From the NCBI RefSeq assembly GCF_036507355.1, contig NZ_AP027877.1: a DNA stretch of 64,000 nt. One strand, written 5' to 3'. A model generated the notes under the pieces. That model saw only the letters and a list, made by a program, of their open reading frames with translations. It was not told where the DNA came from and made no database searches. The translations under genes were made by a program, and so were the position numbers. This stretch comes from Escherichia coli. Its GTDB lineage: Bacteria; Pseudomonadota; Gammaproteobacteria; Enterobacterales; Enterobacteriaceae. This document shows positions 3,650-32,010 of the stretch, one piece after another; position 1 is the stretch's first letter, and each line of letters opens with the position of its first letter.

Positions 3650-6600
3650 TTACGCCTTCTCGATGTTGACTAAGAACGCTTTATATTCCGGCGTTTGCGA
3701 GTTTGCATCACCGACATTCGGCGTCAGAGTGTTAGCGATATAACCTTTACGCGCGACACCCTCAAAGCCCCAGTGGATTGGAATACCCACCGTTTCAACC
3801 TGCTGACCATTTACATTCAGCGGTTTCAGACGACGCGTTACCACAGCCACCGCGCGGATAAAGCCACGCTTGCTTGAGACAGTGACACGATCGCCATTAT
3901 TAATGCCTTTCGCCGCCGCCAGCGTTTCGCTGATTTCCACAAACTGTTCCGGCTGAGCAATTGCGTTGAGCAATGCGTGCTTGGTCCAGGTGTGGAAGTG
4001 CTCGGTCAGACGATAGGTCGTACCCACATACGGGAACTGCTCTTTTTTACCCATCCGCAGTGCGTCTTGTTCATACAGACGAACAACCGGGTTAGACACC
4101 ACGTTCGGATGCAGCGGGTTAGTGCCCAGCGGCGTTTCAATCGGCTCGTAGTGTTCCGGGAACGGACCTTCCGCCATTTTGTTGATGGCAAACAGGCGTC
4201 CCATCCCTTCCGGCTGCATGATAAACGGCCCGGTTGGCGTACCCGGTGCGGCATTGCCGAAGTCAGGAATATCGTTACCCGTCCACTTGCTGCCGTTCCA
4301 CTGGATCAGCATCCGTTTCGGATCCCACGGTTTACCGTTGATATCCGCCGAAGCACGGTTGTACAGCACGCGACGGTTGAGCGGCCACGCCCAGGCCCAT
4401 CCCAGCGTATTCCCCAGACCGGACGGGTCGGAGTTATCGCGGTTAGCCATCTGGTTGCCCTGCTCTGTCCAGCTACCGGTGTAGATCCAGCAAGAAGATG
4501 CGGTTGTACCGTCATCACGCAGATGCGCAAAGCTACTCAGCAACTGACCTTTCTTCGCAATCAGCACGCCATTAGCATCATAGAGATCTTCCAGCGCATA
4601 GCCGTTGTTCTCTTTTGCCACTTCGTCAGATTGCGGTTCGTGCGGCTGCTTGTAGTTCCAGCTCATCTTCATCAGCGGTTCTACGCCTTTACCACCTTCG
4701 GCCTGGTACAGCTCGCGCAGATGATGGTAGATACCCGCCAGAATTTCGCCGTCGTTACGCGCTTCGCCCGGCGCGTCCTGACCTTTCCAGTGCCACTGCA
4801 ACCAGCGACCGGAGTTAGCGATAGAACCATCTTCTTCGGCAAAGCAGGTCGAAGGCAGACGGAATACTTCAGTCTGAATAGACGCCGGATCGACATCGTT
4901 CGACTCGCCGTGGTTCTGCCAGAAGGTAGAGGTTTCAGTCACCAGCGGATCGATAACCACCATGTACTTCAGTTTGCTCAGGCAGCTCACCACTTTGTTT
5001 TTGTCCGGGAAGGACGCAACCGGGTTAAAGCCCTGGCAGAAATAACCGGTGACTTTGCCTTCGTCCATCATGTTGAAATACTTGATGACGTCGTAGGTCT
5101 GGTCCCACTTCGGCAGCCAGTCATAGCCCCAGTTGTTCTCTTTCTGCGCGGCATCGCCATAGAAAGATTTCATCAGGCTAACGAAGAACTTCGGATAGTT
5201 GCTCCAGTAGTTCACCTGACCAGCCAGCGTTGCTTTCGGCGTGTTCGCTTCCAGATACGACTGCAAATCAACCTGTTTTTCTGACGGCAGCGTCAGATAA
5301 CCTGGCAGGCTGGTAGAGAGCAGGCCTAAGTCAGTCAGCCCCTGAATGTTGGAGTGACCACGCAATGCGTTCACGCCGCCACCGGCCATACCCATGTTAC
5401 CGAGTAGCAACTGGATCATCGCCATAGTACGGATGTTCTGCGCACCCACGGTGTGCTGCGTCCAGCCCAGCGCGTACAGGAAGGTGGTTGTGCGATCCGG
5501 TGCGCTGGTGGAGGCCAGCACTTCACACACTTTCAGGAAGTCGGCTTTTGGCGTACCGCAGATGTTTTCAACGACGTCCGGCGTGTAGCGGGAAACGTGC
5601 TCTTTCAGCAGGTTCCACACACAGCGCGGATGAGTCAGTGTTTCATCGCGTTTTGCATAGCCGTTTTCATCGAACTGATAGTTCCAGGACGATTTATCGT
5701 ATTGCCGTTTTTCAGCGTCGTAGCCGCTGAACAGACCGTCTTCGAAAGCAAAATCATCACGCACCAGCAAGCTGGCGTTGGTGTAATGCTTAACGTATTC
5801 AGCGTTGATTTTGTTGTTTTCGATCAGGTAGCGCAAAACGCCAGACAGGAACGTAATGTCCGTACCGGAACGAATAGGTGCGTAAATATCCGCTACAGAA
5901 GCGGTACGCGTAAAACGGGGATCGACAACGATCAAGGTTGCATCGTTGTTGTTTTTCGCTTCCATCGCCCAGCGGAAACCGACGGGATGCGCTTCAGCAG
6001 CGTTACCGCCCATTACCATTACGACGTTAGCGTTTTTGATATCCACCCAGTGGTTGGTCATCGCACCGCGACCAAATGTTGGAGCAAGACTTGCTACCGT
6101 TGGTCCGTGTCAGACGCGCGCCTGGTTGTCTACCGCCAGCATCCCGAGGGAGCGGGCAAATTTCTGGGTCAGCATCCCGGTTTCGTTGCTGGCACCGGAA
6201 GCACACAGCATACCGGTAGAAAGCCAACGGTTTACCGTTACGCCCTGCTCGTTCTTTTCAATAAAGTTAGCGTCACGGTCAGCTTTCATCAGCTTCGCAA
6301 TACGGGAGAATGCTTCTTCCCAGCTAATGCGCTGCCATTTGTCAGAACCTGGCGCACGATATTCCGGGTAGCGCAGACGGTTTTCGCTGTTGACGTAATC
6401 CAGCAAACCGGCCCCTTTCGGGCACAGCGCACCACGGCTTACCGGATGATCCGGGTCACCTTCAATGTGATAAATCGCTTCTCTGGCGTTTTTCGCGCCA
6501 TCACCCAGGCTATACATCAATAGCCCGCAACCTACGGAACAGTATGTGCAGGTGTTACGGATCTCTTTAGCGCGTAATAATTTGTAGTTTCGCGCCTGAG

Positions 6601-6697
6601 CCAGTGCTTGCTTCGGGGCAAAGCCCAATGCCGCTACTGTTGTTCCAGCCATACCGCCCGCGCAGATTTTAAAAAATTGTCTGCGACTGACGTCCAT
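3650..6697 (-). CDS. fdnG: Formate dehydrogenase-N alpha subunit, selenocysteine-containing (in-frame UGA at 6110-6112 read as Sec)
   Basis: Two same-frame ORFs (6697-6110 and 6061-3650) separated only by a TGA; Tat signal MDVSRRQFFK; total 1015 codons as in FdnG. Confidence 0.9.
6065..6112 (-). promoter_or_regulatory. Selenocysteine UGA codon plus downstream SECIS-region of fdnG mRNA
   Basis: In-frame TGA at codon 196 of fdnG; bacterial SECIS elements lie immediately 3' of the UGA (fold not computed). Confidence 0.6.
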
Positions 6698-6761
6698 TGC
6701 TTTCCTCTTTTTTCAGGGGTATTACTGCGCGAGGAAACTAACAGTAAAATTCTGAATCTTT

Positions 6762-6775
6762 TTGCGCGAAATCAA
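6762..6775 (-). promoter_or_regulatory. Putative FNR binding site of the fdnG promoter
   Basis: On the fdnG strand reads TTGATttcgCGCAA, a near-consensus FNR half-site pair (TTGAT-N4-ATCAA), about 70 bp upstream of the fdnG start. Confidence 0.5.
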
Positions 6776-6928: not shown

Positions 6929-7810
6929 ATGACACGACAAAAAGCAACGCTCATAGGGCTGATAGCGATCGTCCTGTGGAGCACGATGGTAGGATTGATT
7001 CGCGGTGTCAGTGAGGGGCTCGGCCCGGTCGGCGGCGCAGCTGCTATCTATTCATTAAGCGGGCTGCTGTTAATCTTCACGGTTGGATTTCCGCGTATTC
7101 GGCAAATCCCGAAAGGCTATTTACTCGCCGGGAGTCTGTTATTCGTCAGCTATGAAATCTGTCTGGCGCTTTCCTTAGGGTATGCGGCGACCCGTCATCA
7201 GGCGATTGAAGTGGGTATGGTGAACTATCTATGGCCCAGCCTGACAATTCTCTTTGCCATTCTGTTTAATGGTCAGAAAACCAACTGGCTGATTGTACCA
7301 GGATTATTATTAGCCCTCGTCGGCGTCTGTTGGGTGTTAGGCGGTGACAATGGGTTACATTATGATGAAATCATCAATAATATCACCACCAGCCCATTGA
7401 GTTATTTCCTGGCGTTCATTGGTGCGTTTATCTGGGCAGCCTACTGCACAGTAACGAATAAATACGCACGCGGATTTAACGGAATTACCGTTTTTGTCCT
7501 GCTAACGGGAGCAAGTCTGTGGGTTTACTATTTTCTTACGCCACAACCAGAAATGGTATTTAGCACGCCCGTCATGATTAAACTCATCTCTGCGGCATTT
7601 ACCTTAGGATTTGCTTATGCTGCATGGAATGTCGGTATATTGCATGGCAACGTCACCATTATGGCGGTAGGTTCGTATTTTACGCCCGTACTTTCCTCAG
7701 CGCTTGCAGCCGTGCTGCTCAGCGCCCCGCTGTCGTTCTCATTCTGGCAAGGCGCGCTAATGGTCTGCGGCGGTTCCCTGCTCTGCTGGCTGGCGACACG
7801 TCGTGGTTAA
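6929..7810 (+). CDS. yddG: Aromatic amino acid exporter (DMT superfamily)
   Basis: 293-aa polytopic membrane ORF; synteny next to fdnG. Confidence 0.85.
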   Translation: MTRQKATLIGLIAIVLWSTMVGLIRGVSEGLGPVGGAAAIYSLSGLLLIFTVGFPRIRQIPKGYLLAGSLLFVSYEICLALSLGYAATRHQAIEVGMVNYLWPSLTILFAILFNGQKTNWLIVPGLLLALVGVCWVLGGDNGLHYDEIINNITTSPLSYFLAFIGAFIWAAYCTVTNKYARGFNGITVFVLLTGASLWVYYFLTPQPEMVFSTPVMIKLISAAFTLGFAYAAWNVGILHGNVTIMAVGSYFTPVLSSALAAVLLSAPLSFSFWQGALMVCGGSLLCWLATRRG

Positions 7811-8068
7811 AATAATTGCCGGGTCTACGGCCTGGCAGTTAATCAGATAAATTCCGACAATATTAAAAAATAAATTTCGAATACCAGTAATTCACTTTAT
7901 ATCTCATTTCGACTTCGATCACATATCGATAAATAATATTATTTCATCTATTTTTCTCATTGTTTTTAATCACCATTCTATTTTAAAAACAGTATGTCAT
8001 TTATAAATGACGCCGTTTAAAATTCGTTTAGAAAATACGTTTAACGATAATTAAAAGGATTCTGTTAA

Positions 8069-9169
8069 ATGAAATTAAAAATAGTTGCGGTGGTTGTAAC
8101 TGGTTTGTTAGCTGCGAACGTAGCACACGCTGCCGAAGTCTATAACAAGGATGGTAATAAACTCGACCTTTATGGCAAGGTTACCGCTCTACGTTATTTT
8201 ACTGATGATAAGCGTGACGATGGTGATAAAACTTATGCCCGTCTCGGCTTTAAAGGAGAAACGCAAATCAATGATCAAATGATTGGTTTTGGTCACTGGG
8301 AATATGATTTTAAAGGCTATAACGATGAAGCCAACGGCTCGCGCGGCAACAAGACCCGTCTGGCCTATGCTGGTTTAAAAATTAGTGAGTTTGGCTCTCT
8401 GGACTATGGTCGTAACTACGGTGTCGGCTATGACATTGGTTCATGGACCGATATGTTGCCAGAATTTGGTGGCGATACCTGGAGTCAGAAAGATGTCTTC
8501 ATGACATACCGTACCACCGGTGTAGCAACCTATCGCAACTACGATTTCTTTGGCTTAATTGAAGGGCTGAACTTTGCCGCGCAATATCAAGGCAAAAATG
8601 AACGTACTGACAACAGTCATCTTTATGGTGCAGACTACACGCGTGCCAACGGTGACGGTTTCGGTATCTCCTCAACTTATGTTTATGATGGCTTTGGTAT
8701 CGGTGCGGTATATACCAAATCCGATCGGACAAATGCGCAGGAAAGAGCCGCTGCTAATCCTCTTAATGCCTCCGGTAAGAATGCAGAACTGTGGGCCACA
8801 GGTATAAAGTATGATGCCAACAACATCTACTTTGCAGCTAATTACGCTGAAACATTAAACATGACCACCTATGGCGATGGTTATATCTCGAACAAAGCAC
8901 AAAGTTTTGAAGTGGTGGCGCAATATCAATTCGACTTCGGCTTGCGCCCATCACTCGCTTACCTGAAATCGAAAGGCAGAGATCTGGGCCGCTACGGCGA
9001 CCAGGACATGATTGAGTATATCGACGTTGGTGCGACGTATTTCTTCAACAAAAATATGTCGACCTATGTTGATTATAAAATCAACCTGATTGATGAAAGC
9101 GACTTTACCCGTGCCGTAGATATTCGCACCGATAACATCGTCGCAACGGGCATTACCTATCAGTTCTAA
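8069..9169 (+). CDS. yddL: General porin of the OmpC/OmpF/OmpN family (intact counterpart of the K-12 yddL pseudogene)
   Basis: 366-aa ORF, signal peptide ending [20 protein letters not shown]-terminal YQF; position between yddG and the LRR genes. Confidence 0.75.
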
Positions 9170-9182
9170 CATCCTCTCCTGA

Positions 9183-9208
9183 CCAGCCCTTCTCTGGGCT
9201 GGTTTTTG
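9183..9208 (+). terminator. Rho-independent terminator after the porin gene
   Basis: CCAGCCC-ttctct-GGGCTGG stem followed by TTTTT. Confidence 0.55.
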
Positions 9209-23259: not shown

Positions 23260-23626
23260 GATTGTGCTCCTTTTGAAAGATGTCAGTAAAATTAACACAC
23301 ATTGTGAATGTCGTGTGTCCGGTAATGCGTTTTTACGACAATAATGCCTGCTTGAAATTGTAGATATTTGCACTACACCCTTTTAAATAAAGCACCAACA
23401 AATCTTCAAATTGCAGGACATATTCTTCTGCCAATATACCATTAAGAAAACATCAAGTTCCCGGCTTGCCAATTTATTAACGCCCATTATAGACGCTGAA
23501 ACAAGCCACGGACAAAGAAGATGCCAAAATTACCGGCAATGCAGAAAAACTCAACGAACTGTTAGGTTAAATGGATAATTTTGAATTTTGGTTCAATATA
23601 GTGACACTATAAAATTACTTTGTATC

Positions 23627-23649
23627 GGGCAGGTGCCCTGCCCTTTTTT
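23627..23649 (+). terminator. Orphan rho-independent terminator (perfect 7-bp GC stem + T6)
   Basis: GGGCAGG-tgc-CCTGCCC followed by TTTTTT; overlaps a second CCCTTTTT/AAAAAGGG inverted repeat; no annotated + strand gene ends here. Confidence 0.5.
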
Positions 23650-23712
23650 AGTTAAAAAGGGCTGAAAGAAGAAATACGCATCATTCATGGAAAACTCGCC
23701 GCGATATGGTAA

Positions 23713-24015
23713 TTCGCGGCATGGCAATTAACTTGCCAGTCAGAGGATATTGTTGTCCGTTATGGTAGCGAAGATTTTGCCATCAAACTTTTTAATGCAA
23801 CATTGCCGGAAGCAGAGACGGTAGCAGCCAGAGTGAAACAAGAACTTAAACTGGCAGCTATCCCGCATCAGGCATCTGCTGTTAGTGCGTTCGTTACGGT
23901 TAGTCACGGGATTACCTGGTCTGCTCCCGCCAAAACGGCTGAACAAATTATTTCAGATGCCGACGCCGCGTTATACCGGGCGAAAGCAAGTGGGCGAAAT
24001 CGATGGGCTTTATAA
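23713..24015 (+). pseudogene. C-terminal fragment of a GGDEF-domain (diguanylate cyclase-like) protein
   Basis: In-frame translation ...RYGSEDFAIKL...SAFVTVSHGITW...ADAALYRAKASGRNRWAL matches the C-terminal half of GGDEF domains; no N-terminal part and a stop immediately upstream. Confidence 0.5.
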
Positions 24016-24078
24016 CTATTAGGGGACTGGCTAGATTACGTATCTTCGCTCTTAACAAGGACTGACGGCAGGGCAAGA

Positions 24079-24560
24079 TTACGAAAGCCCGCTCCCCGCA
24101 AGGACTGACGCCAGATAGTTTCTGTCCATGGCTGCTTTTCGCATCTTATGTCTTAACCCTGCCTTGAATACCTTATCATTCGTCAAAATATTAATAGCAA
24201 TGTGCCGTATCCCTGGAAATAATTCTGCTGCATTTCCTCTTCTTATTTTGCAGTCGTCTTCATTCATTACCACGTCCAGACGCCAGTGCAGCTTATTCTC
24301 CACGTGCCAGTGGTTTCGGATTGCTGTGGCGAACTTCTCTGCGGTTAAATCAGCAGAACTGATATAATATCTGACCGTCATTTCTGGCTCTTTCTTTTGT
24401 TCTGCTATTATGGACCGAAAGGAGACTGCCACGCATAATTTCTTCAGCCCTTTCCATTCAAACGTGAAATCAATAAGTTCATCAGGAACATCGCAAACAA
24501 TATGAAGACGGATTTCTTCTCTGCCGTGACTAAAATGCGAATTATTTAGTACAAAAAAAG
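24079..24560 (-). pseudogene. 3' remnant of an H-repeat / ISAs1-family transposase gene
   Basis: ORF 24079-24432 encodes ...[43 protein letters not shown]..., the conserved C-terminus of H-repeat proteins such as YdcC; further matching residues continue upstream in a shifted frame; N-terminal two-thirds absent. Confidence 0.6.
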
Positions 24561-24636: not shown

Positions 24637-25092
24637 TCAGGGGTGACATAAATAGAATTTTTTTTCATCCTCAATTGCCCATAACTGATTAATAAAAAAG
24701 TGTTTTTTATCATCTAATAACAAATCATCACATGTAGTAAAATTATTAATATCAAAAAAATCATCAGCACAATTAATTTTTAAATTTAAAAAATAAAGAA
24801 AAATATTATTGATTGATTTGAGTGTAAACCACTTGTCATTAACAAATTTATAGCCAGATGATTTTATAAAATAATAATTATCTCCTGGTATAAAGGCATA
24901 CATATCATTTAAGGTTATACTCAACAAAAAACTACGACCTGGTTTAATAGTATTCCAGCGTTCAGGATTCGTATTAATTTCAAAAGGACATGAACCACCT
25001 AAGTAGTCCAACGTGATATTCCCAGAGTTGATCCTGGATGGTTTTTTGCATATCGCATCATATTCATCTCCTTTTCCATCTTTTACTTTCAT
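24637..25092 (-). CDS. Hypothetical protein (151 aa), AT-rich, translationally coupled to the upstream small ORF
   Basis: Start ATG overlaps the stop of the upstream ORF (ATGA at 25089-25092); no recognisable motif. Confidence 0.4.
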   Translation of the reverse strand: MKVKDGKGDEYDAICKKPSRINSGNITLDYLGGSCPFEINTNPERWNTIKPGRSFLLSITLNDMYAFIPGDNYYFIKSSGYKFVNDKWFTLKSINNIFLYFLNLKINCADDFFDINNFTTCDDLLLDDKKHFFINQLWAIEDEKKFYLCHP

Positions 25093-25379
25093 AGGTAGAT
25101 AATATTTAGAAAAAAATACGTGGTAGAGCTATTGTTAGTAAAGGTTATGTTAGCAAAAATCCTGTTATTTTTTTTACTCATAGCTAATTGAGCATTGACA
25201 TCCGCTATATAATTTATATGATTACATTTTTTCTTACACTCATCATAATTTTCGATAGGATAAATTAATGGCCTTCCTTTGATATCTCTCTCAAGCCCAA
25301 ACCCGTATTTTTTTATTAAAACCATTTCATCCGCAGTCGATTGAAAGGAATAGAAAAATATAATATTTACGATTGTCAT
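25089..25379 (-). CDS. Hypothetical small protein (96 aa), AT-rich
   Basis: ORF only; hydrophobic N-terminus; coupled to the downstream ORF. Confidence 0.35.
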   Translation of the reverse strand: MTIVNIIFFYSFQSTADEMVLIKKYGFGLERDIKGRPLIYPIENYDECKKKCNHINYIADVNAQLAMSKKNNRIFANITFTNNSSTTYFFLNIIYL

Positions 25380-25431: not shown

Positions 25432-26280
25432 TTAATGGAGAAGTGTTTTTTCTAATTCCGCTATTTTTTTCTTAACTGAATTGCTTAATATTTCATCATT
25501 AATCGAGTCTATCTCACTTTCAATTAATCTTATTTCAAAATATCTTTCTATGTTATATGCATTCTCAAATATTTGATCTTTTTGTTTAGAGATCAGTTTA
25601 GTTGCAATACGGATATGTTCGTCATATGAAACTTCATCCTCTTTGCACGTTGAATATTTATCAGTAGTTGTATAATCCTGTGACCACATACCACCTTTTT
25701 TATTATCCCCATAATACCACTGAATATGAGACATTTCATGACATAAAGTAGCAACATGAGAATCCTTTCCCGTTACTGGATTTTTTTTGCCATCTCTATA
25801 CTCAAATTTTGCGCCTATGTTAATTATATAGGGCATATCCTTACTTGGGCTGACGAATGCTGCAAATTCATTACAACCTGTATAATTTATAAAACTGCTC
25901 ATTGTTAAATCATTAGCTATAATCATTAATCTTCTCACGCCATCCATCATAAGAAATCTAGCATTCATGCGCCTACCTGTATTATGTCCATATTTTCTTA
26001 TATTAACTTCCTTATTTCCTTTAACACCAAAGATCTTACTGAAATAATATTCCTCCTGTGCTCCCCATCTCAAAAGATCATCTGCTCTTTTTATCAAAAC
26101 CAACTTTTGTGCCTTACGAGCCTTATCAATCATTATTTTAAAATGATCAGTTATTTTTTGCTCTTTCACACATTCTTCTGGCTCTGGCTTTGGTTGTCCA
26201 GAAGTTTGATTATTATCGTCCATAGTGTCCTTCCATTGAGAGAAAATCATCATTCGCAAATAGCAACTAAAAAGCAGCAT
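25432..26280 (-). CDS. Hypothetical protein with HExxH motif (putative zincin-like metallopeptidase or toxin domain)
   Basis: Motif ATLCHEMSHIQWYYG; ~30% GC; true start may be the internal MDDNNQ (26223); function inferred from motif only. Confidence 0.45.
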   Translation of the reverse strand: MLLFSCYLRMMIFSQWKDTMDDNNQTSGQPKPEPEECVKEQKITDHFKIMIDKARKAQKLVLIKRADDLLRWGAQEEYYFSKIFGVKGNKEVNIRKYGHNTGRRMNARFLMMDGVRRLMIIANDLTMSSFINYTGCNEFAAFVSPSKDMPYIINIGAKFEYRDGKKNPVTGKDSHVATLCHEMSHIQWYYGDNKKGGMWSQDYTTTDKYSTCKEDEVSYDEHIRIATKLISKQKDQIFENAYNIERYFEIRLIESEIDSINDEILSNSVKKKIAELEKTLLH

Positions 26281-26410
26281 TACTTGACCTTTCCCTGCAT
26301 AACAATATTTATAAAATAATACGTTTTATGATCTCACCTTGGGCTCCCAACAAGATAATTTCAGTTTTAAAGACTTTCACGAAAAAAATATAGAAATACC
26401 TCACCACCCT

Positions 26411-26701
26411 TCACTTACCAATTAATCTCACAGGAAATCCAACTTCCTTACCACAAATACAATCCCAAGTAACACCTCCCAAAATTTTTGATACTTTAGG
26501 CTGCAATGGCATTATTGACATTATAAATTTATCAAGTTCTTCGCTATATTTAATTCCCTTTATATTTCTTATTATTGATATTCTAGCAGTAAAGATAGCC
26601 GTCTCTCCATCTACACTAAAAGTGTAATTACAATTTTTTGTAATCTCATCAAATTCAACCGATAACAAATCAATATTATGGTTTGTAAACACTATGCCCA
26701 T
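26411..26701 (-). CDS. Putative immunity protein for the upstream effector
   Basis: 96-aa ORF whose start overlaps the effector 3' end by 26 nt; call rests on position and size only. Confidence 0.4.
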   Translation of the reverse strand: MGIVFTNHNIDLLSVEFDEITKNCNYTFSVDGETAIFTARISIIRNIKGIKYSEELDKFIMSIMPLQPKVSKILGGVTWDCICGKEVGFPVRLIGK

Positions 26702-28115
26702 TCCATACCTCCTTAAATTCCTGTTCAGTCATCAGATATCGACTCCCTTGATATGGATCATATATTATCACATTCCCAGCATCATCAACACCCTTAACAA
26801 GTACCCAATGCCCTACTTTACTTCCAGAATCCCACATCATTGCTCCCCATGAACCAGTATTACTGAGGGCATATAAACTAGATTCGCTCACTGCATTCCC
26901 TTCCCAGCCGACATCAAATTTATTAAGCTTGTTTGCCAGCGACGTCATAGATGTTAATTCTGTTCCAATTACATTTTGCGTGACAAAAATATACCTATCC
27001 CTAAGCAACATTTCCCCACAGGCCGCTCCACAGCCTGTTAAAGTCAATTGCTTTATTACATTTGAATCTAAAACCTCATCAAATACTGTCCAATTGCCAC
27101 CAGCACCACCTTCTAAAACTACCGGCTCTACAAATACTTTCCCAGAGATATTTTCTTCTGGTATTTTTGCGGGTATCATAAAGCCCCATAAAAAGCTGGC
27201 AAAATGCTCCAGAGCAATCTGATCACCATTATTTGCATCCATTATCATTTTTTTAAGTGCATCCCATGCTTGCCCATTTATCAATGAATCACTAATATTA
27301 AATAAAGCCTGTTCTTTTTCGTTTAAATTTATATTTGCCTGTTCACATAACCCATCTTCGCCTATCGGGCAAGCAACCGTTGCCGTTGCCGTATCTAACA
27401 GAGCATCGAATGTAACTAAGGCTAAATCCGCCACACCATGTAAAGTGGTGATTGCTCCATTCCCCATTTGAGTAAGTGTGTTCTCTACAAACCATTCTCT
27501 AATTTGAGATTTATCTCCTTCAATATCATTCCTGAGAGATTCTCTGATATTCTTTATTGAAAAAAACTCCCCCCATGATTGGTCAGGATCTTTTATTTGG
27601 AATAAATCATTTTTAACCTCAGGTGAAATATCTCCGTCAAAAATATTACCAACAGAGAGGAGATCCTTCAGAAGCAGTAAATCGTGTATTACTTCAGCAG
27701 TCCTTTCATAATTAAAAGTTCTATCAATGACAGAAATCATTGGTGATTTTATTTTGGTATATAATTTACCAAGGCAGTTATGGTTATTAATCCCAACAAC
27801 TGAACCATGATAAGCGACAGGTCTCCCCTCTATTGTTACAGTCGGACTTCCCGTTAAAATAACGCAGTCACCTGTTCCTTGAGATGTACCAGATATGACA
27901 CCTTTACCGGCATTACTTTGAGTTCCAGCAATCACTGAACCAACATTTAAAGCTCTGCATCCACGCGCCCATACCGTTGAACTGTACTGCCTTTCACTAT
28001 CTAAAGTCTGGTAACTGTCAAAAGGAACCTTGTCACCTCCTACTTCACATACATCTGGTGAAGAGCACACGACTTTAAATCTACATTCACCATCCCCGAT
28101 ATGATAGCTACCCAT
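26676..28115 (-). CDS. Putative T6SS effector: N-terminal DUF4150-type PAAR-like domain, C-terminal C39-like papain-fold Cys peptidase domain
   Basis: N-term SPDVC...VPFDSY...GKGVISGTSQG...TVTIEGRPVAYHGSVVGINNHN resembles the DUF4150 pattern; C-term GCGAACGEML and GHWVLVKGVDD...IIYDP resemble Cys and His motifs of C39/papain-like peptidases; downstream of vgrG. Confidence 0.6.
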   Translation of the reverse strand: MGSYHIGDGECRFKVVCSSPDVCEVGGDKVPFDSYQTLDSERQYSSTVWARGCRALNVGSVIAGTQSNAGKGVISGTSQGTGDCVILTGSPTVTIEGRPVAYHGSVVGINNHNCLGKLYTKIKSPMISVIDRTFNYERTAEVIHDLLLLKDLLSVGNIFDGDISPEVKNDLFQIKDPDQSWGEFFSIKNIRESLRNDIEGDKSQIREWFVENTLTQMGNGAITTLHGVADLALVTFDALLDTATATVACPIGEDGLCEQANINLNEKEQALFNISDSLINGQAWDALKKMIMDANNGDQIALEHFASFLWGFMIPAKIPEENISGKVFVEPVVLEGGAGGNWTVFDEVLDSNVIKQLTLTGCGAACGEMLLRDRYIFVTQNVIGTELTSMTSLANKLNKFDVGWEGNAVSESSLYALSNTGSWGAMMWDSGSKVGHWVLVKGVDDAGNVIIYDPYQGSRYLMTEQEFKEVWNGHSVYKP

Positions 28116-28698
28116 AATATTTTTTTCCTATACATTCAGGAATAATACAACTCAGCACTCCTTCTTTCATTCCAAAAAAATCAGGTATTGTCAATCTCCA
28201 GGTAAGGTATATTTCCTGTCGATTTAAATCGATAACCATTGTATCCGCAACAGGTAAGAACATATGAGATGTATTATGCTTGGTTTTTAATATAAGTACA
28301 GGTCGTATACCTGGCAATTTTGTCTTAACAACCTGTTCAAATTTAAAAAAACCTTCAAGAGTGATGTTTTCATCGCCAGAGAGAAACCCCGCGTATATCA
28401 TATCCGGATGAGCACTATTGTAGAACCTCTCATCAAAATCATCCGGCAAATAGGGATAGCGCTTTTCACGCCATACTTCATTGTAGGTTCCTGCATACTG
28501 GAGGCGACTTTTCCACCATCGAGATACAGGGCCAACGCCTTGAAAAAAGTCAGATTCCCCATTAAAAATGGTAGCGTTTTCTGACAAAGCAGAGCTGGTT
28601 ATTTGTGGGAGTTTATATTGACAACTTGTATTAAGTTGGGAAATATCAGGATAATATCCACAACCTACAGGGTTTGCTGAAAAAACCAATTTTCCCAT
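28108..28698 (-). CDS. Hypothetical protein in adaptor/chaperone position between vgrG and the effector
   Basis: 196-aa ORF; stop overlaps effector start by 8 nt; adaptor role (DUF2169-type by analogy) inferred from gene order only. Confidence 0.35.
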   Translation of the reverse strand: MGKLVFSANPVGCGYYPDISQLNTSCQYKLPQITSSALSENATIFNGESDFFQGVGPVSRWWKSRLQYAGTYNEVWREKRYPYLPDDFDERFYNSAHPDMIYAGFLSGDENITLEGFFKFEQVVKTKLPGIRPVLILKTKHNTSHMFLPVADTMVIDLNRQEIYLTWRLTIPDFFGMKEGVLSCIIPECIGKKYYG

Positions 28699-29560
28699 AC
28701 CATCTGGTTGCCAAATACCACCGTAAGCAAGCTCATAGCGTAGAGGAATATTAATAATTTTATCGTGAGATGCTGATCGTTCGCTACCACAATCTTCTGA
28801 TCATGACTGCCTTCCTTCTTACTCCCAACATTCACCGTCTGACCCACACCCACCGTAATTTTCTGGTTATTGGTTATGGTTTCCGTGTGGTCGTGTTTCA
28901 CCGTCGTCGTCCGGTCATTCAGCACCTCCGTATCCATGTTCTTCTGCGCATGGATATACACCTGCTCATTACTGGTGGCGTCTTCAAACCGCAGCTCGTT
29001 AAATCCGCTTCCTTTATAGGTTTTTGACCGGATGGTCATCTGCGTCTTCGTTCCCGGCAGGTCGCCCGGCGAACGGTTGTCCTCATGGTAGGTCCGCCCC
29101 ATGATTATCGGCTGGTCCGGGTCGCCGTTCAGAAAATCAACAATCACCTCCTGGCCCACCCGCGGTATCGCCAGGTTACCGAACCCCGGCCCCGCCCACG
29201 CCTGCGATACCCGCACCCAGCATGAACTCGCCTCCGTCATCCCGTGATAACGGTCCCAGTGGAACTTCACCCGTACCCGGCCATGTTCATCGCAGAAGAT
29301 TTCCTCTCCCGCAGGCCCGGTGACAATGGCACTCTGCGGCCCGTCCACCTTCGGTTTGCTTTGCAGCCGTGGACGCCACGTCCGGTCCGCCGGTATCACC
29401 TCTAACTGATTTCCCAGCGTGGTTCCTCTCCCTTGGCTGCCGTGCAGCGCCTGCGGCTGGTTTCCTGACAGAATGCTCTGTACCACCTGCCATTCACGGT
29501 TCAGCATCTTCTGCGGATGAGGTGTACTGGCAATAGCGGACACTACCATTTGTTCTTTTT

Positions 29561-30379
29561 TTAAGCAGCCATCTGATGATATTTTTCCCTGAAGGCTGCC
29601 GGGGAGATATTCCCCAGACGAGAGTGACGACGCTGACGATTGTAGAAAATCTCAATGTATTCCCGTATTACTGAGATGGCTTCATCCCGGTTATTAAAAC
29701 GATAGTGGCTCAGGCTCTCATTTTTCAGCGTTCCCCAGAAGCTTTCCATCGGAGCGTTGTCGTAACAGTTACCTTTACGCGACATTGATGTTTTCAGACC
29801 AAACTGCTCCTGTATGACCCGGTAATCGTATGCGCAGTACTGTGAACCTCGATCAGAGTGGTGGATTAGCCCGGCAGGTGGGCGCTGTCTCCTGAGCGCC
29901 ATAAACAGGGCTTTACCTGTCAGCTCTTTTGTCATGCGCTCTCCCATGGCGTAGCCGACAATTTCGCACGTATAAACATCTTTGATGCCAGCGAGGTACA
30001 ACCATCCCTCCTGTGTGGCAACATACGTCAGGTCCGCCACCCAGACCTGATTTGGTGCTGTAGGAGCGAACGTCTGGTTCAGCAGATTTGGCGCAACTGG
30101 CAGATTGTGGTTCGAGTTCGTAGTCGCTCTGAACTTGCGTTTCTGCTTACAGCGTAGCCTTAGCTCCTTACGAAGACGTGCCAGTCGGTCACGACCAACG
30201 ATGATGCCATTCTCTGCCAGCTCCGTCTGGAGCCGCCGGGTTCCATATGTTTCGCGAGTGCGGATATGTGCCACCTTAATCTCCAGTTTTAGCCGCTCAT
30301 CACTTTGTTTTCTGTCTGAGGGTTCATGCTGTACCCAGTTGTAATAACCGCTCCTGGATACACCAAATACCTGACACAT
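29561..30379 (-). CDS. IS600-like transposase OrfB (DDE integrase core)
   Basis: 272-aa ORF with IS3-family OrfB sequence; normally expressed as an OrfAB fusion by -1 frameshifting. Confidence 0.8.
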   Translation of the reverse strand: MCQVFGVSRSGYYNWVQHEPSDRKQSDERLKLEIKVAHIRTRETYGTRRLQTELAENGIIVGRDRLARLRKELRLRCKQKRKFRATTNSNHNLPVAPNLLNQTFAPTAPNQVWVADLTYVATQEGWLYLAGIKDVYTCEIVGYAMGERMTKELTGKALFMALRRQRPPAGLIHHSDRGSQYCAYDYRVIQEQFGLKTSMSRKGNCYDNAPMESFWGTLKNESLSHYRFNNRDEAISVIREYIEIFYNRQRRHSRLGNISPAAFREKYHQMAA

Positions 30380-30414
30380 CGCTTCAATGGGAAATTGTTG
30401 TCGCCATTGTTCGA

Positions 30415-30717
30415 TTAACGCGTATTTTTCAGCGACTCCTGTGCAAAATACGCTGTTGCTTTTTTTAATATATCTCGCTCAAGGCGAGCTTCATTTAACG
30501 CCTTACGCAGTTGCAGAATTTCAGATTCCAGTTCAGCCACCGTGCGGGAACCAGGAGTACCGAGCCCTTTTCTGGCGGCGGTAACCCATTGTCCTAAAGT
30601 GCCTTCAGGAAGAGATAATCGGGAAGCGCCTTCACTGATCGAAAGTTGATTTTCAAGAACCGTTCTGACAGCTTCGGCTTTGAACTCTTTAGAGTAACGT
30701 TGGGTTTTTCTGCTCAT
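30415..30717 (-). CDS. IS600-like transposase OrfA (HTH)
   Basis: 100-aa ORF MSRKTQRYSKEFKAEAVR... typical of IS3-family OrfA. Confidence 0.8.
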   Translation of the reverse strand: MSRKTQRYSKEFKAEAVRTVLENQLSISEGASRLSLPEGTLGQWVTAARKGLGTPGSRTVAELESEILQLRKALNEARLERDILKKATAYFAQESLKNTR

Positions 30718-31725
30718 TATTAGCTCCTTCTGATGCCATTCTATTTCAGGAAGGAGTGTCCGTTAAACTCAGGCTACCTCAGGATGCCCCGTCAGCGTAA
30801 ACCGCGTTCCCGGCCACAGCCTCGGCGAATTACTCTGCCCTGTGGCCTTTTCCGCATCACTGCGCAGGCTCTCCATCTGGTACAGCGTGAAATCCTTGCC
30901 GTGCTGCTCATCCTTGAACCTTCCCGGATAATCAAATATTTCATACTGCGCCAGCTGTCCGTTCAGGTTCTCACCCTGCTGCTCATACATCCCCGGCCAG
31001 TCCGGCACCTTAAACGTGTAATCCTGGCTCTGCACCGACGACGGGCGGACATGCGCCTCATAACGGAACATACTGAGACACTCCGTCTCCGCTCCTGCCG
31101 ATGTGTCCGGGTTAAACGGAAGCTCTCCCGCCTGTGACAGCCCCGCCACATCGTCGCACAGCGTCAGCTTCTGCTCCGGACTGTCCGCCGCAAACCGCTC
31201 AAAGAAGAAAATTCCCTCCTCCGCCCACAGCCGGGACAGAAACGCCAGGTCGCTTTCCCCGTACTGGACACAGAACTCCCGCGCCGGATGGTCCTCATAA
31301 AACAGCGGCGTCCACTCCGTGACGCCGTTCTCGTTCAGTAACGTGGCCGATATCGTCCGGATATCCTGCTGCTGGAAGATACGGAAGTTCTGCCGCAGCC
31401 CGCACCGCCATAACGGCGGCTCAATACGCAGGTGATAACGCATCTGCCAGCCGTTATTCTCCTGCATACCAAAACCCGCCACCACGCCGGTGACATAACG
31501 CTGCGCCACTGCGCCCTGCCAGATGGTCAGCGTCGCCTTCTTCTCCAGCAGCATCTCCGCCGTCTGCATAAAAGAGTCGCTGGCAACATCCACACTCATC
31601 ACAAACGGATATGACTGGCTCTGGATTAACCGGAAGCTCACCACTGCAAAGGTGTCCGGCTCCTGGCCGTCAACCTCCAGCGTAAAGCGAAGACCTTTTA
31701 ATGACATAAATACCTCTCAGACATA

Positions 31726-32010
31726 TCAGCCTATATTTACCGTGCCGCCACCGATAACCACGCCGCCGCAGTCAACAGCATCACCGCTTCTGGCGGCGGG
31801 CAGACCGTCAATAAAGACGGTTGAAGAACCTCTGGCGATTTTTCGGGGATGAGGGGGATGCTTCGGTTTAGCATGCGGCGTCAGCGGATCTCCCTGACGG
31901 GCTGCGGGAAGACCATCGATAAAGACGGTGGATGACCCGGCGGTGATGACGGTCTCGTAATAACCGTCGTGCTGGGTGCCTTTGTCGGTGAGTTTGGCTG
32001 CTAAAGGCAT
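31726..32010 (-). CDS. PAAR-repeat protein (T6SS spike tip)
   Basis: 94-aa ORF containing GLPAARQGD and GLPAARSGD; immediately upstream of vgrG on the same strand. Confidence 0.8.
   Translation of the reverse strand: MPLAAKLTDKGTQHDGYYETVITAGSSTVFIDGLPAARQGDPLTPHAKPKHPPHPRKIARGSSTVFIDGLPAARSGDAVDCGGVVIGGGTVNIG

Follow-up and report, generated by a model that had tools for sequence, protein, structure and literature searches.

A probable decaying copy of the vgrG-DUF2169-cpe1-cpi1 T6SS cassette in an orphan island of Escherichia coli

In a 64-kb stretch of an Escherichia coli genome (contig NZ_AP027877.1; the window), an ORF of 196 aa lies between vgrG and a gene encoding a PAAR-like effector, close to a sharp fall in GC content. 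Does this ORF encode a DUF2169-type adaptor that loads the effector onto VgrG, and is the fall in GC content the trace of a recombination that truncated VgrG? The locus belongs to an orphan PAAR-vgrG island inserted between yncG and pptA in a chromosome of the Escherichia/Shigella type, and the flanks of this island show 98–99.6% identity to E. coli. The features of the island, all on the minus strand, are as follows:

31726..32010, minus strand: stand-alone T6SS PAAR gene, 94 aa, intact, first of the island (T6SS_PAAR_dom, 1-94 of 94)
30782..31707, minus strand: vgrG 5' fragment, codons 1-309, ending at IS600 (Phage_GPD, E 2.4e-73; TIGR03361, 1-302 of 513)
29518..30781, minus strand: IS600 (IS3 family), 1264 bp, TG...CA ends, 99.4-99.8% identity to annotated IS600
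30415-30717 and 29561-30379, minus strand: the two transposase ORFs of IS600, orfA (100 aa) and orfB (272 aa)
28758..29517, minus strand: vgrG 3' fragment, codons 309-561 (Phage_base_V, Gp5_trimer_C; TIGR03361, 298-513 of 513)
28665-29549, minus strand: vgrG-derived ORF upstream of the 196-aa ORF, ending in ...DQHLTIKLLIFLYAMSLLTVVFGNQMVWENWFFQQTL
28758..28764, minus strand: deletion junction, one GATAAAA left of the two that form the 7-bp direct repeat (mapped on strain A30)
28665..28757, minus strand: "hydrophobic tail" of the vgrG-derived ORF, 30 codons and a TAG stop, DUF2169 DNA read in the +1 frame
28108..28764, minus strand: DUF2169 3' remnant, codons 131-348 and stop, frame open upstream to the junction
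28108-28698, minus strand: 196-aa ORF (ATG to stop), starting at the internal Met153 of DUF2169
26676..28115, minus strand: cpe1, PAAR-like (DUF4150/PIPY) and papain-like cysteine protease toxin, 479 aa, intact (Tox-PAAR-like, Peptidase_C39)
26411..26701, minus strand: cpi1, immunity gene, 96 aa, intact, 100% identical to WP_000513317.1 of ATCC 11775

A partial DUF2169 gene next to an intact effector-immunity pair

The 196-aa product belongs to the family that had been proposed from its position: in a Pfam profile search, it scores 135.8 bits against PF09937 (DUF2169), well above the curated cut-off of 25 (E 2.6e-39). The position itself is also that of an adaptor, with a vgrG fragment upstream and a Tox-PAAR-like ORF downstream, and the resulting order, vgrG-DUF2169-DUF4150-effector, is the one described for Agrobacterium Tde2-type loci (PMC6971182, PMC11883445), to which the initial annotation had compared it. 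The stop codon of the ORF overlaps the start of the effector gene, as had been noted, and this overlap of 8 nt (TATTATGGGTAG) is the same in intact alleles (A30: 7168-8214 and 8207-9202). The adaptor reading thus stands as far as the family is concerned, but not as a complete gene: the match covers only positions 137–294 of the 294 of the profile, and the conserved sequence corresponds to residues 131–348 of the 348 aa encoded by the two intact E. coli alleles examined (97.7% aa identity to ATCC 11775 and 96.8% to A30). Homology to the intact frame begins at 28764, 22 codons upstream of the ATG, and reaches the junction. The ATG at 28698 is merely the first start codon found 3' of an upstream stop and no Shine-Dalgarno-like sequence precedes it (GGCAACCAGATGGTATG). 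A complete domain of this family, i.e. a single three-sheet fold of ~300–350 aa with its own start codon, is not encoded here. Judged from these alignments, 28108-28698 is a remnant of a DUF2169 chaperone gene and not an adaptor gene. None of the NCBIfam HMMs matches the remnant, Cpe1, Cpi1 or even the intact DUF2169 protein of ATCC 11775, and this library is unusable to assign membership for these proteins.

DUF2169 proteins are needed for the delivery of PIPY effectors and for VgrG secretion, and adopt one compact fold made of three beta-sheets arranged in a beta-sandwich (PMC11883445). As residues 56–281 of the E. coli protein align to residues 56–266 of the chaperone 8VTH, the residues 56–130 that are missing here lie within the structured protein. 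Still present in the remnant is the stretch (~residues 209–246) that aligns with the dynamic loop by which 8VTH binds PIPY domains. By analogy, however, it should not work as a chaperone, as it represents the C-terminal ~63% of the protein and lacks a start codon of its own. Compared to ATCC 11775, it carries 7 synonymous and 5 non-synonymous substitutions, too few to show relaxed selection, and the corresponding counts for cpe1 (14:8) and cpi1 (0:0) are likewise too small for such a test.

The two downstream genes are intact. The effector ORF matches Tox-PAAR-like PF13665 (45.5 bits, cut-off 31) and its N-terminal domain carries KVPF at residues 29–32, i.e. by eye three of the four positions of the P(I/V)P(Y/F) motif of PIPY domains. 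Over 479 aa, it is 98.3% identical to Cpe1 of ATCC 11775 with the catalytic Cys362 kept, it matches PDB 9l5u with an E value of 2.5e-94, and its RefSeq relatives carry the cpe1 annotation. Together with the identity of its neighbour to Cpi1, this assigns the two genes to the Cpe1/Cpi1 pair published for E. coli ATCC 11775 (PLoS Biol 2025, PMC12136450). A promoter and terminator scan of 26300-29700 yielded 15 promoter-like sites versus 8.8 ± 2.8 in shuffled sequences, an excess of ~2 sd that is uninformative in such AT-rich DNA; promoter-like sites (28317-28289, 10 of 12 matches) lie inside the remnant.

An 802-bp deletion and an IS600 insertion in vgrG

The boundary between vgrG and the remnant was mapped using A30 as the reference. 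In A30, GATAAAA is found in vgrG (L001, 6756-6762) and again in DUF2169 (7558-7564), and the 802 bp in between are absent from the window, where one copy remains. The deletion amounts to 803 bp relative to ATCC 11775, and the span measures 2422 bp in 300 genomes with an intact cassette versus 1620 bp here. Both flanks of the junction are collinear with one intact cassette, in A30 as well as in ATCC 11775, and the two breakpoints share the repeat. The last 87–99 codons of vgrG (originally 648–660 codons), the intergenic spacer and codons 1–130 of DUF2169 are deleted. The recombination junction suspected in the initial annotation is therefore real and lies just upstream of the ORF, but it is a deletion within the locus, at a 7-bp microhomology, and involves no crossover with DNA of foreign origin.

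The hydrophobic tail that had been taken as a sign of VgrG truncation, ...DQHLTIKLLIFLYAMSLLTVVFGNQMVWENWFFQQTL at the end of 28665-29549, finds its source in this junction. Read in the +1 frame, nt 398-490 of intact DUF2169 genes give LL[I/M]FLYAMSLLTVVFGNQMVWRNWFFQQTL followed by a stop codon, which reproduces 28 of the 30 tail residues in ATCC 11775 and 29 of the 30 in A30. No intact VgrG shares the tail; those of A30 and ATCC 11775 continue as ...TIKNDRHKVVNNNQTSKV... instead. The 3' fragment aligns without gaps to residues 306–561 of both proteins, and everything beyond residue 561 is replaced by the 30-aa frameshift tail, which confirms the proposed truncation. This C-terminal variable region sets the effector specificity of VgrG proteins (PMC6971182).

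The adaptor's own truncation was absent from the initial annotation, as was a second lesion of vgrG: ~750 bp upstream of the junction, the gene is split by an IS600 copy. Its ends and its 3-bp target duplication (TCC at 30782-30784 and 29515-29517, inside codon 309) were read against the uninterrupted A30 sequence, and the elements that it matches are annotated as "IS3-like element IS600 family transposase". Its length, its ends, its two transposase ORFs and its duplication are those of IS600. The vgrG 5' fragment shares 97.1% aa identity with residues 1–310 of A30 VgrG. A continuous spike ORF, with gp27-like, gp5 OB and beta-helix parts followed by a cargo-specific C-terminus, is thus no longer found, and the TIGR03361 match is split across IS600. 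The PAAR gene that precedes it is recognized by NCBIfam T6SS_PAAR_dom (E 1.4e-46) and by Pfam PAAR_motif (E 5.2e-21) and is found at the same position in A30, RM12761 and GPT24-02.

The abrupt composition break reported at the vgrG 3' end does exist, GC content falling from 0.58–0.64 (28900-29500) to 0.36–0.43 (28000-28900), but it is not peculiar to this allele. Intact alleles show a fall as well, from ~0.51 to 0.38, around the same codon of vgrG (~561), and overall values are 0.579 for the vgrG core, 0.424 for its 3' end and 0.369 for DUF2169. The deletion therefore did not create the step. On the evidence of these alleles, the step already existed as the border of a conserved, GC-rich vgrG core with an AT-rich cargo-specific module, and does not mark the truncation. 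The left breakpoint coincides with this boundary.

Among NCBI, ENA and Logan assemblies, 11 independent public contigs match the ORF or Cpe1 exactly, and all 11 share this junction. No complete E. coli genome of the 5,426 searched has it, and an exact-match scan of one genome per species (100,044 species) gave no match. When contigs encoding exactly this Cpe1 protein were searched for an intact immediate ancestor, all of those retrieved already carried the deletion. The 150 nt of vgrG just upstream of the junction (28770-28917) reach at most 87.7% identity to any vgrG of the 5,426 complete genomes, hence the immediate intact ancestor is unseen among them. A foreign crossover was considered from the divergence of this segment and rejected as the main explanation: its best matches are Cpe1-type vgrGs, aligned up to the base that adjoins the junction, and its encoded protein sequence is conserved (95.3% over 256 aa).

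Origin and fate of the deleted allele

Taken together, the locus is very probably a decaying copy of the known vgrG-DUF2169-cpe1-cpi1 T6SS cassette, altered by an 802-bp deletion and by IS600 through ordinary gene decay. The deletion occurred between the two GATAAAA repeats, likely by replication slippage or by microhomology-mediated illegitimate recombination. As it is not a multiple of three, the vgrG frame runs for 30 codons in the +1 frame of DUF2169. The true DUF2169 frame is left without a start, the 196-aa ORF being a mechanical call of the ORF finder from Met153. IS600 inserted separately, at vgrG codon 309.

This reading was weighed against four others. That the ORF is a complete and working DUF2169-type adaptor, loading the PAAR-like effector onto VgrG, would agree with its family, its position and its overlap with the effector gene, but is extremely improbable: only positions 137–294 of the 294-position profile are matched, 300 genomes with the intact cassette are 802 bp longer here (the two examined encoding 348 aa), the homology extends upstream of an ATG devoid of any Shine-Dalgarno-like sequence, and the cognate VgrG is broken twice. 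A partial role, in which the C-terminal 196–218 residues bind or stabilise Cpe1 or in which translation of the fragment merely couples that of cpe1 and cpi1, is improbable in its turn. Retention of the region equivalent to the PIPY loop, the preserved overlap with cpe1, the intactness of cpe1 and cpi1 and the promoter-like sites within the remnant speak for it, but a single compact beta-sandwich should not fold once 130 of its 348 residues are gone, the promoter count is only ~2 sd above that of shuffled sequences, and a related allele present in 32 genomes lacks DUF2169 altogether. The more specific proposal that the fragment would be expressed from its internal start as a minimal Cpe1-binding chaperone or translational coupler is distinctly improbable. 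If true, it would mean that part of the DUF2169 fold suffices for effector binding and that intact Cpe1 is kept, perhaps to be fired on a VgrG from another locus of the genome.

The two remaining readings concern the junction itself. It could be the scar of an illegitimate crossover by which a resident vgrG acquired the AT-rich cargo module from incoming DNA, since the left breakpoint falls at the GC step and the adjacent vgrG segment is divergent. However, the same step is present in intact alleles, in which neither the vgrG 3' end nor DUF2169 is truncated. Moreover, a single cassette type is matched on either side of the junction, and breakpoints that share a 7-bp direct repeat are the hallmark of a simple deletion. 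Such a scar is therefore highly improbable. As for an assembly or sequencing artefact, nothing specific points to it, although vgrG paralogs and IS600 are repeats at which short-read contigs tend to end (29515-29519 and ~28950). The identical junction in 11 independent contigs out of 11 speaks against an artefact, and the chance that it is one is close to nil.

If the locus is such a decaying cassette, Cpe1 would no longer be loadable onto a spike by its own partners, as VgrG is broken twice and the chaperone lacks more than one third of its compact beta-sandwich fold. With cpe1 intact and Cys362 present, the effector could be delivered by a VgrG/DUF2169 pair from another locus of the genome. 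We infer that cpe1 and cpi1 have stayed intact either because the cassette was damaged recently or through the protection that cpi1 would give against Cpe1-armed neighbours. Retention of orphan immunity genes is a known pattern, and the decay of the cassette with cpi1 kept recurs, as two different deletion alleles of this one island, both retaining cpi1, fit this pattern. This also suggests that strains carrying this allele would be protected from Cpe1-armed E. coli but would not fire Cpe1 themselves. For annotation, the ORF should be recorded as a fragment of a DUF2169 pseudogene, and the pieces of vgrG as parts of a single pseudogene, instead of an adaptor and a short VgrG. The locus also adds to the orphan T6SS cargo islands in which decay proceeds from the delivery end and the immunity gene remains identical.

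Comparison with related cassettes

The cassette of ATCC 11775 has the same vgrG-DUF2169-cpe1-cpi1 order and the same overlap of DUF2169 with cpe1, but it is intact and terminates the main T6SS cluster (tssBC-hcp-vgrG), which lies beside yafV, whereas the present one lies in the yncG-pptA orphan island, lacks 802–803 bp over the vgrG/DUF2169 boundary and carries IS600 in vgrG. E. coli A30 harbours the same island with intact PAAR, vgrG (648 aa) and DUF2169 (348 aa) genes. Its effector differs (331 aa, matching Cpe1 over residues 1–317 only, with another end), and its island runs on into another vgrG fragment and an M23 peptidase gene.

The allele of the O145:H28 type (RM12761, GPT24-02; 32 complete genomes) occupies the same yncG...pptA site, with the same PAAR gene and vgrG 5' part, a cpe1 3' end and cpi1 that are 99.9% identical, and the same downstream M35-like and ISAs1 genes. 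In RM12761 and GPT24-02, the two of these 32 genomes whose annotation was examined, Cpi1 is identical and bears the same accession. However, this deletion is larger and has other breakpoints, the equivalent of window position 28967 being joined to that of 27177 (vgrG codon ~491 to cpe1 codon ~313); it leaves no DUF2169, cuts cpe1 to a 111-aa C39 fragment, and the allele is devoid of IS600.

More distantly, the DUF2169 chaperones VP1398 of V. parahaemolyticus, 8VTH of V. xiamenensis and Atu3641 of A. tumefaciens (synteny type B) belong to the same PF09937 family and are likewise encoded between vgrG and the gene of a DUF4150/PIPY-domain effector, whereas only the C-terminal ~63% of such a protein is left here.

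The DUF2169 remnant and its neighbours

The ORF, the overlap with the effector gene, the hydrophobic VgrG tail and the GC drop reported in the initial annotation are all present in the sequence. The 196-aa ORF belongs to the following gene order:

31726-32010, minus strand: stand-alone PAAR gene (full-length NCBIfam match)
30769-31707, minus strand: VgrG N-terminal ORF, 312 aa
29518-30781: IS600, 1264 bp, bounded by TG...CA and flanked by duplicated TCC, within vgrG codon 309
30415-30717 and 29561-30379, minus strand: two IS3-family transposase ORFs
28665-29549, minus strand: ORF with the VgrG C-terminal part, 294 aa
28108-28698, minus strand: the 196-aa ORF, overlapping the next one by 8 nt (TATTATGGGTAG)
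26676-28115, minus strand: 479-aa ORF (cpe1)
26411-26701, minus strand: 96-aa ORF (cpi1)

The proposed adaptor family was the right one, as Pfam assigns the 196-aa ORF to DUF2169 (E 2.6e-39). The alignment pairs its residues 6-168 with positions 137-294 of the 294-position profile, whose N-terminal 136 positions have no counterpart in the ORF. The remnant shares 96.8-97.7% identity with residues 131-348 of intact DUF2169 proteins; its ATG corresponds to their Met153 and is preceded by 22 more codons of open, homologous frame that reach the junction described below. The ORF is a pseudogene remnant within a known cassette.

The upstream ORFs are pieces of VgrG according to Pfam (Phage_GPD; Phage_base_V and Gp5_trimer_C) and match positions 1-302 and 298-513 of NCBIfam TIGR03361. 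The halves of vgrG are separated by an IS600 copy, overlooked in the initial annotation, that is 99.4-99.8% identical to annotated copies. Because, the insertion and the deletion aside, both pieces align to intact genes without gaps or stops, the sequence suggests that the inactivation of vgrG is recent.

The deletion junction and the composition break

Intact versions of the cassette are found in E. coli A30 and ATCC 11775. At the equivalent chromosomal site (yncE-ansP-yncG ...), A30 has PAAR, VgrG (648 aa) and DUF2169 (348 aa), the latter two intact, and a PAAR-like effector. In ATCC 11775, vgrG (660 aa), DUF2169 (348 aa), the 479-aa effector and the 96-aa protein follow tssB-tssC-hcp in the main T6SS cluster. 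Window positions 29519-28758 align to 6001-6762 of the A30 locus (L001) and positions 28764-27164 to 7558-9159. The sequence GATAAAA occurs at both breakpoints and a single copy is left in the window (28758-28764). The missing DNA, 802 bp relative to A30 and 803 bp relative to ATCC 11775, consists of:

vgrG 3' end: last 264 nt, comprising the stop and 87 codons (99 in ATCC 11775)
vgrG-DUF2169 spacer: 141 nt
DUF2169 5' end: first 390 nt, i.e. 130 codons
7-bp repeat: one of the two copies

The VgrG truncation suspected earlier is therefore real, as the match to intact proteins stops after ...ANDQHLTIK (residue 561), where these continue with NDRHKVVNNNQTSKV..., but the same deletion also truncated the adaptor, which had gone unnoticed. 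So had the nature of the hydrophobic tail. Read from nt 398 in the +1 frame, intact DUF2169 genes give LL[I/M]FLYAMSLLTVVFGNQMVWRNWFFQQTL*, which matches 28-29 of the 30 tail residues. The tail is a frameshifted read-through into chaperone DNA and not a feature of VgrG.

When 5,426 complete E. coli genomes were searched by megablast with positions 27900-29560, 300 covered this stretch in two blocks that extend over 2422 bp (only 1620 bp in the query) and none contained the junction as a single piece. It was not found either among 100,044 species represented by one genome each. Eleven distinct public contigs encode either exactly this 196-aa ORF or exactly this Cpe1 variant; every one of them carries the junction, and they break off at the edge of IS600 or around 28950, as repeats would lead one to expect. 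The junction is a genuine allele of a single lineage. A recombination history more complex than a simple deletion is still conceivable. The repeat at both breakpoints and the collinear alignments fit a simple event, but over the ~150 nt of vgrG that precede the junction (28770-28917, minus strand), ~20% of the sites differ from A30 and ATCC 11775, and about as many from every other vgrG in the 5,426 complete genomes, with a conserved protein and flanks 97-99% identical. The 233 nt of vgrG ending at the junction (28758-28990) have no match above 87.7% in the 5,426 genomes and the closest relatives have lost the divergent stretch; therefore, the immediate intact ancestor is unseen.

Across 29000-28700, the GC content falls from 0.58-0.64 to 0.36-0.43. 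The initial annotation took this break as a sign of recombination, but it is ancestral: GC drops from ~0.51 to 0.38 at the equivalent vgrG position of A30 and ATCC 11775, where the vgrG 3' end and DUF2169 are complete. GC is 0.579 in the vgrG core, 0.424 in its 3' end, 0.369 in DUF2169 and 0.373 in the deleted segment. The break is where the conserved core meets the cargo-specific module. It is old in the cassette and was not made by the deletion, whose left breakpoint coincides with the edge of the break by chance.

A second deletion allele and other features of the island

A different deletion at this island is carried by 32 complete E. coli genomes, O145:H28 among them; it joins the equivalents of window positions 28967 and 27177, i.e. 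vgrG codon ~491 to cpe1 codon ~313 (5355/5356 and 6523/6524 in loci L011 and L012, which bear this deletion). The aligned blocks do not overlap at its breakpoint. In these genomes vgrG is truncated, DUF2169 is gone and Cpe1 is reduced to a C-terminal fragment of 111 aa. Cpi1 is an identical protein in the two annotated genomes, RM12761 and GPT24-02. Over the cpe1 3' end and cpi1, identity to the window is 99.9% for these alleles, versus 98.6-98.8% for intact cassettes. These two different deletions indicate that decay at the island is recurrent, and a cpi1 that is maintained as the genes for delivery disappear would fit selection for orphan immunity.

Other features were observed in the island. 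A 720-bp segment (23349-24068), missing from the otherwise collinear RM12761 (O145:H28) and GPT24-02 loci, encodes on the plus strand the C-terminal piece of a protein of the GGDEF type (...RYGSEDFAIKL...DADAALYRAKASGRNRWAL*). An ISAs1-family (H-repeat) transposase fragment (24079-24432, minus strand) lies at the distal end, similarly to the rhsE region in other E. coli. The 96- and 151-aa ORFs at 24637-25379 (minus strand) correspond to one 263-aa hypothetical protein in GPT24-02, from which they differ by changes of one base within a T8 run (row from ~25130) and an A7 run (row from ~24711); this split is an additional decay of the island. A very AT-rich 282-aa ORF (25432-26280, minus strand) with an HEMSH zinc-protease motif is named 'peptidase M35' in RefSeq relatives (only a weak Pfam match, to Aspzincin_M35, E 0.0024); lying downstream of cpi1, it is possibly a second orphan toxin. 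The 331-aa effector of A30 (L001 8207-9202) matches Cpe1 over residues 1-317 only, then has an unrelated end; a further vgrG fragment and a gene for an M23 peptidase come after it.

Cargo and likely consequences for delivery

The effector is 98.3% identical to Cpe1 of ATCC 11775, with Cys362 kept and a toxin domain matching PDB 9l5u (E 2.5e-94), and the 96-aa protein has the same sequence as Cpi1 (100% identity). GyrB and ParE are cleaved by Cpe1, a papain-like T6SS protease for which Cpi1 is a competitive inhibitor (PMC12136450). As VgrG and DUF2169 are both damaged, delivery of Cpe1 by its own module has most likely been lost. The dynamic loop that has been proposed as the PIPY-binding part aligns with a region still present in the DUF2169 remnant, for which a residual role is conceivable. 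DUF2169 proteins have a single compact fold of three beta-sheets (PMC11883445) and, since residues 56-281 of the E. coli protein align with residues 56-266 of 8VTH (a DUF2169 structure from V. xiamenensis), its residues 56-130 fall within the structured protein. Effector specificity is conferred by VgrG's variable C-terminal region (PMC6971182). PIPY/DUF4150 effectors require DUF2169 proteins to assemble with VgrG into a working spike, and in V. parahaemolyticus the lack of the DUF2169 gene abolishes VgrG secretion and sheath assembly (PMC11883445).
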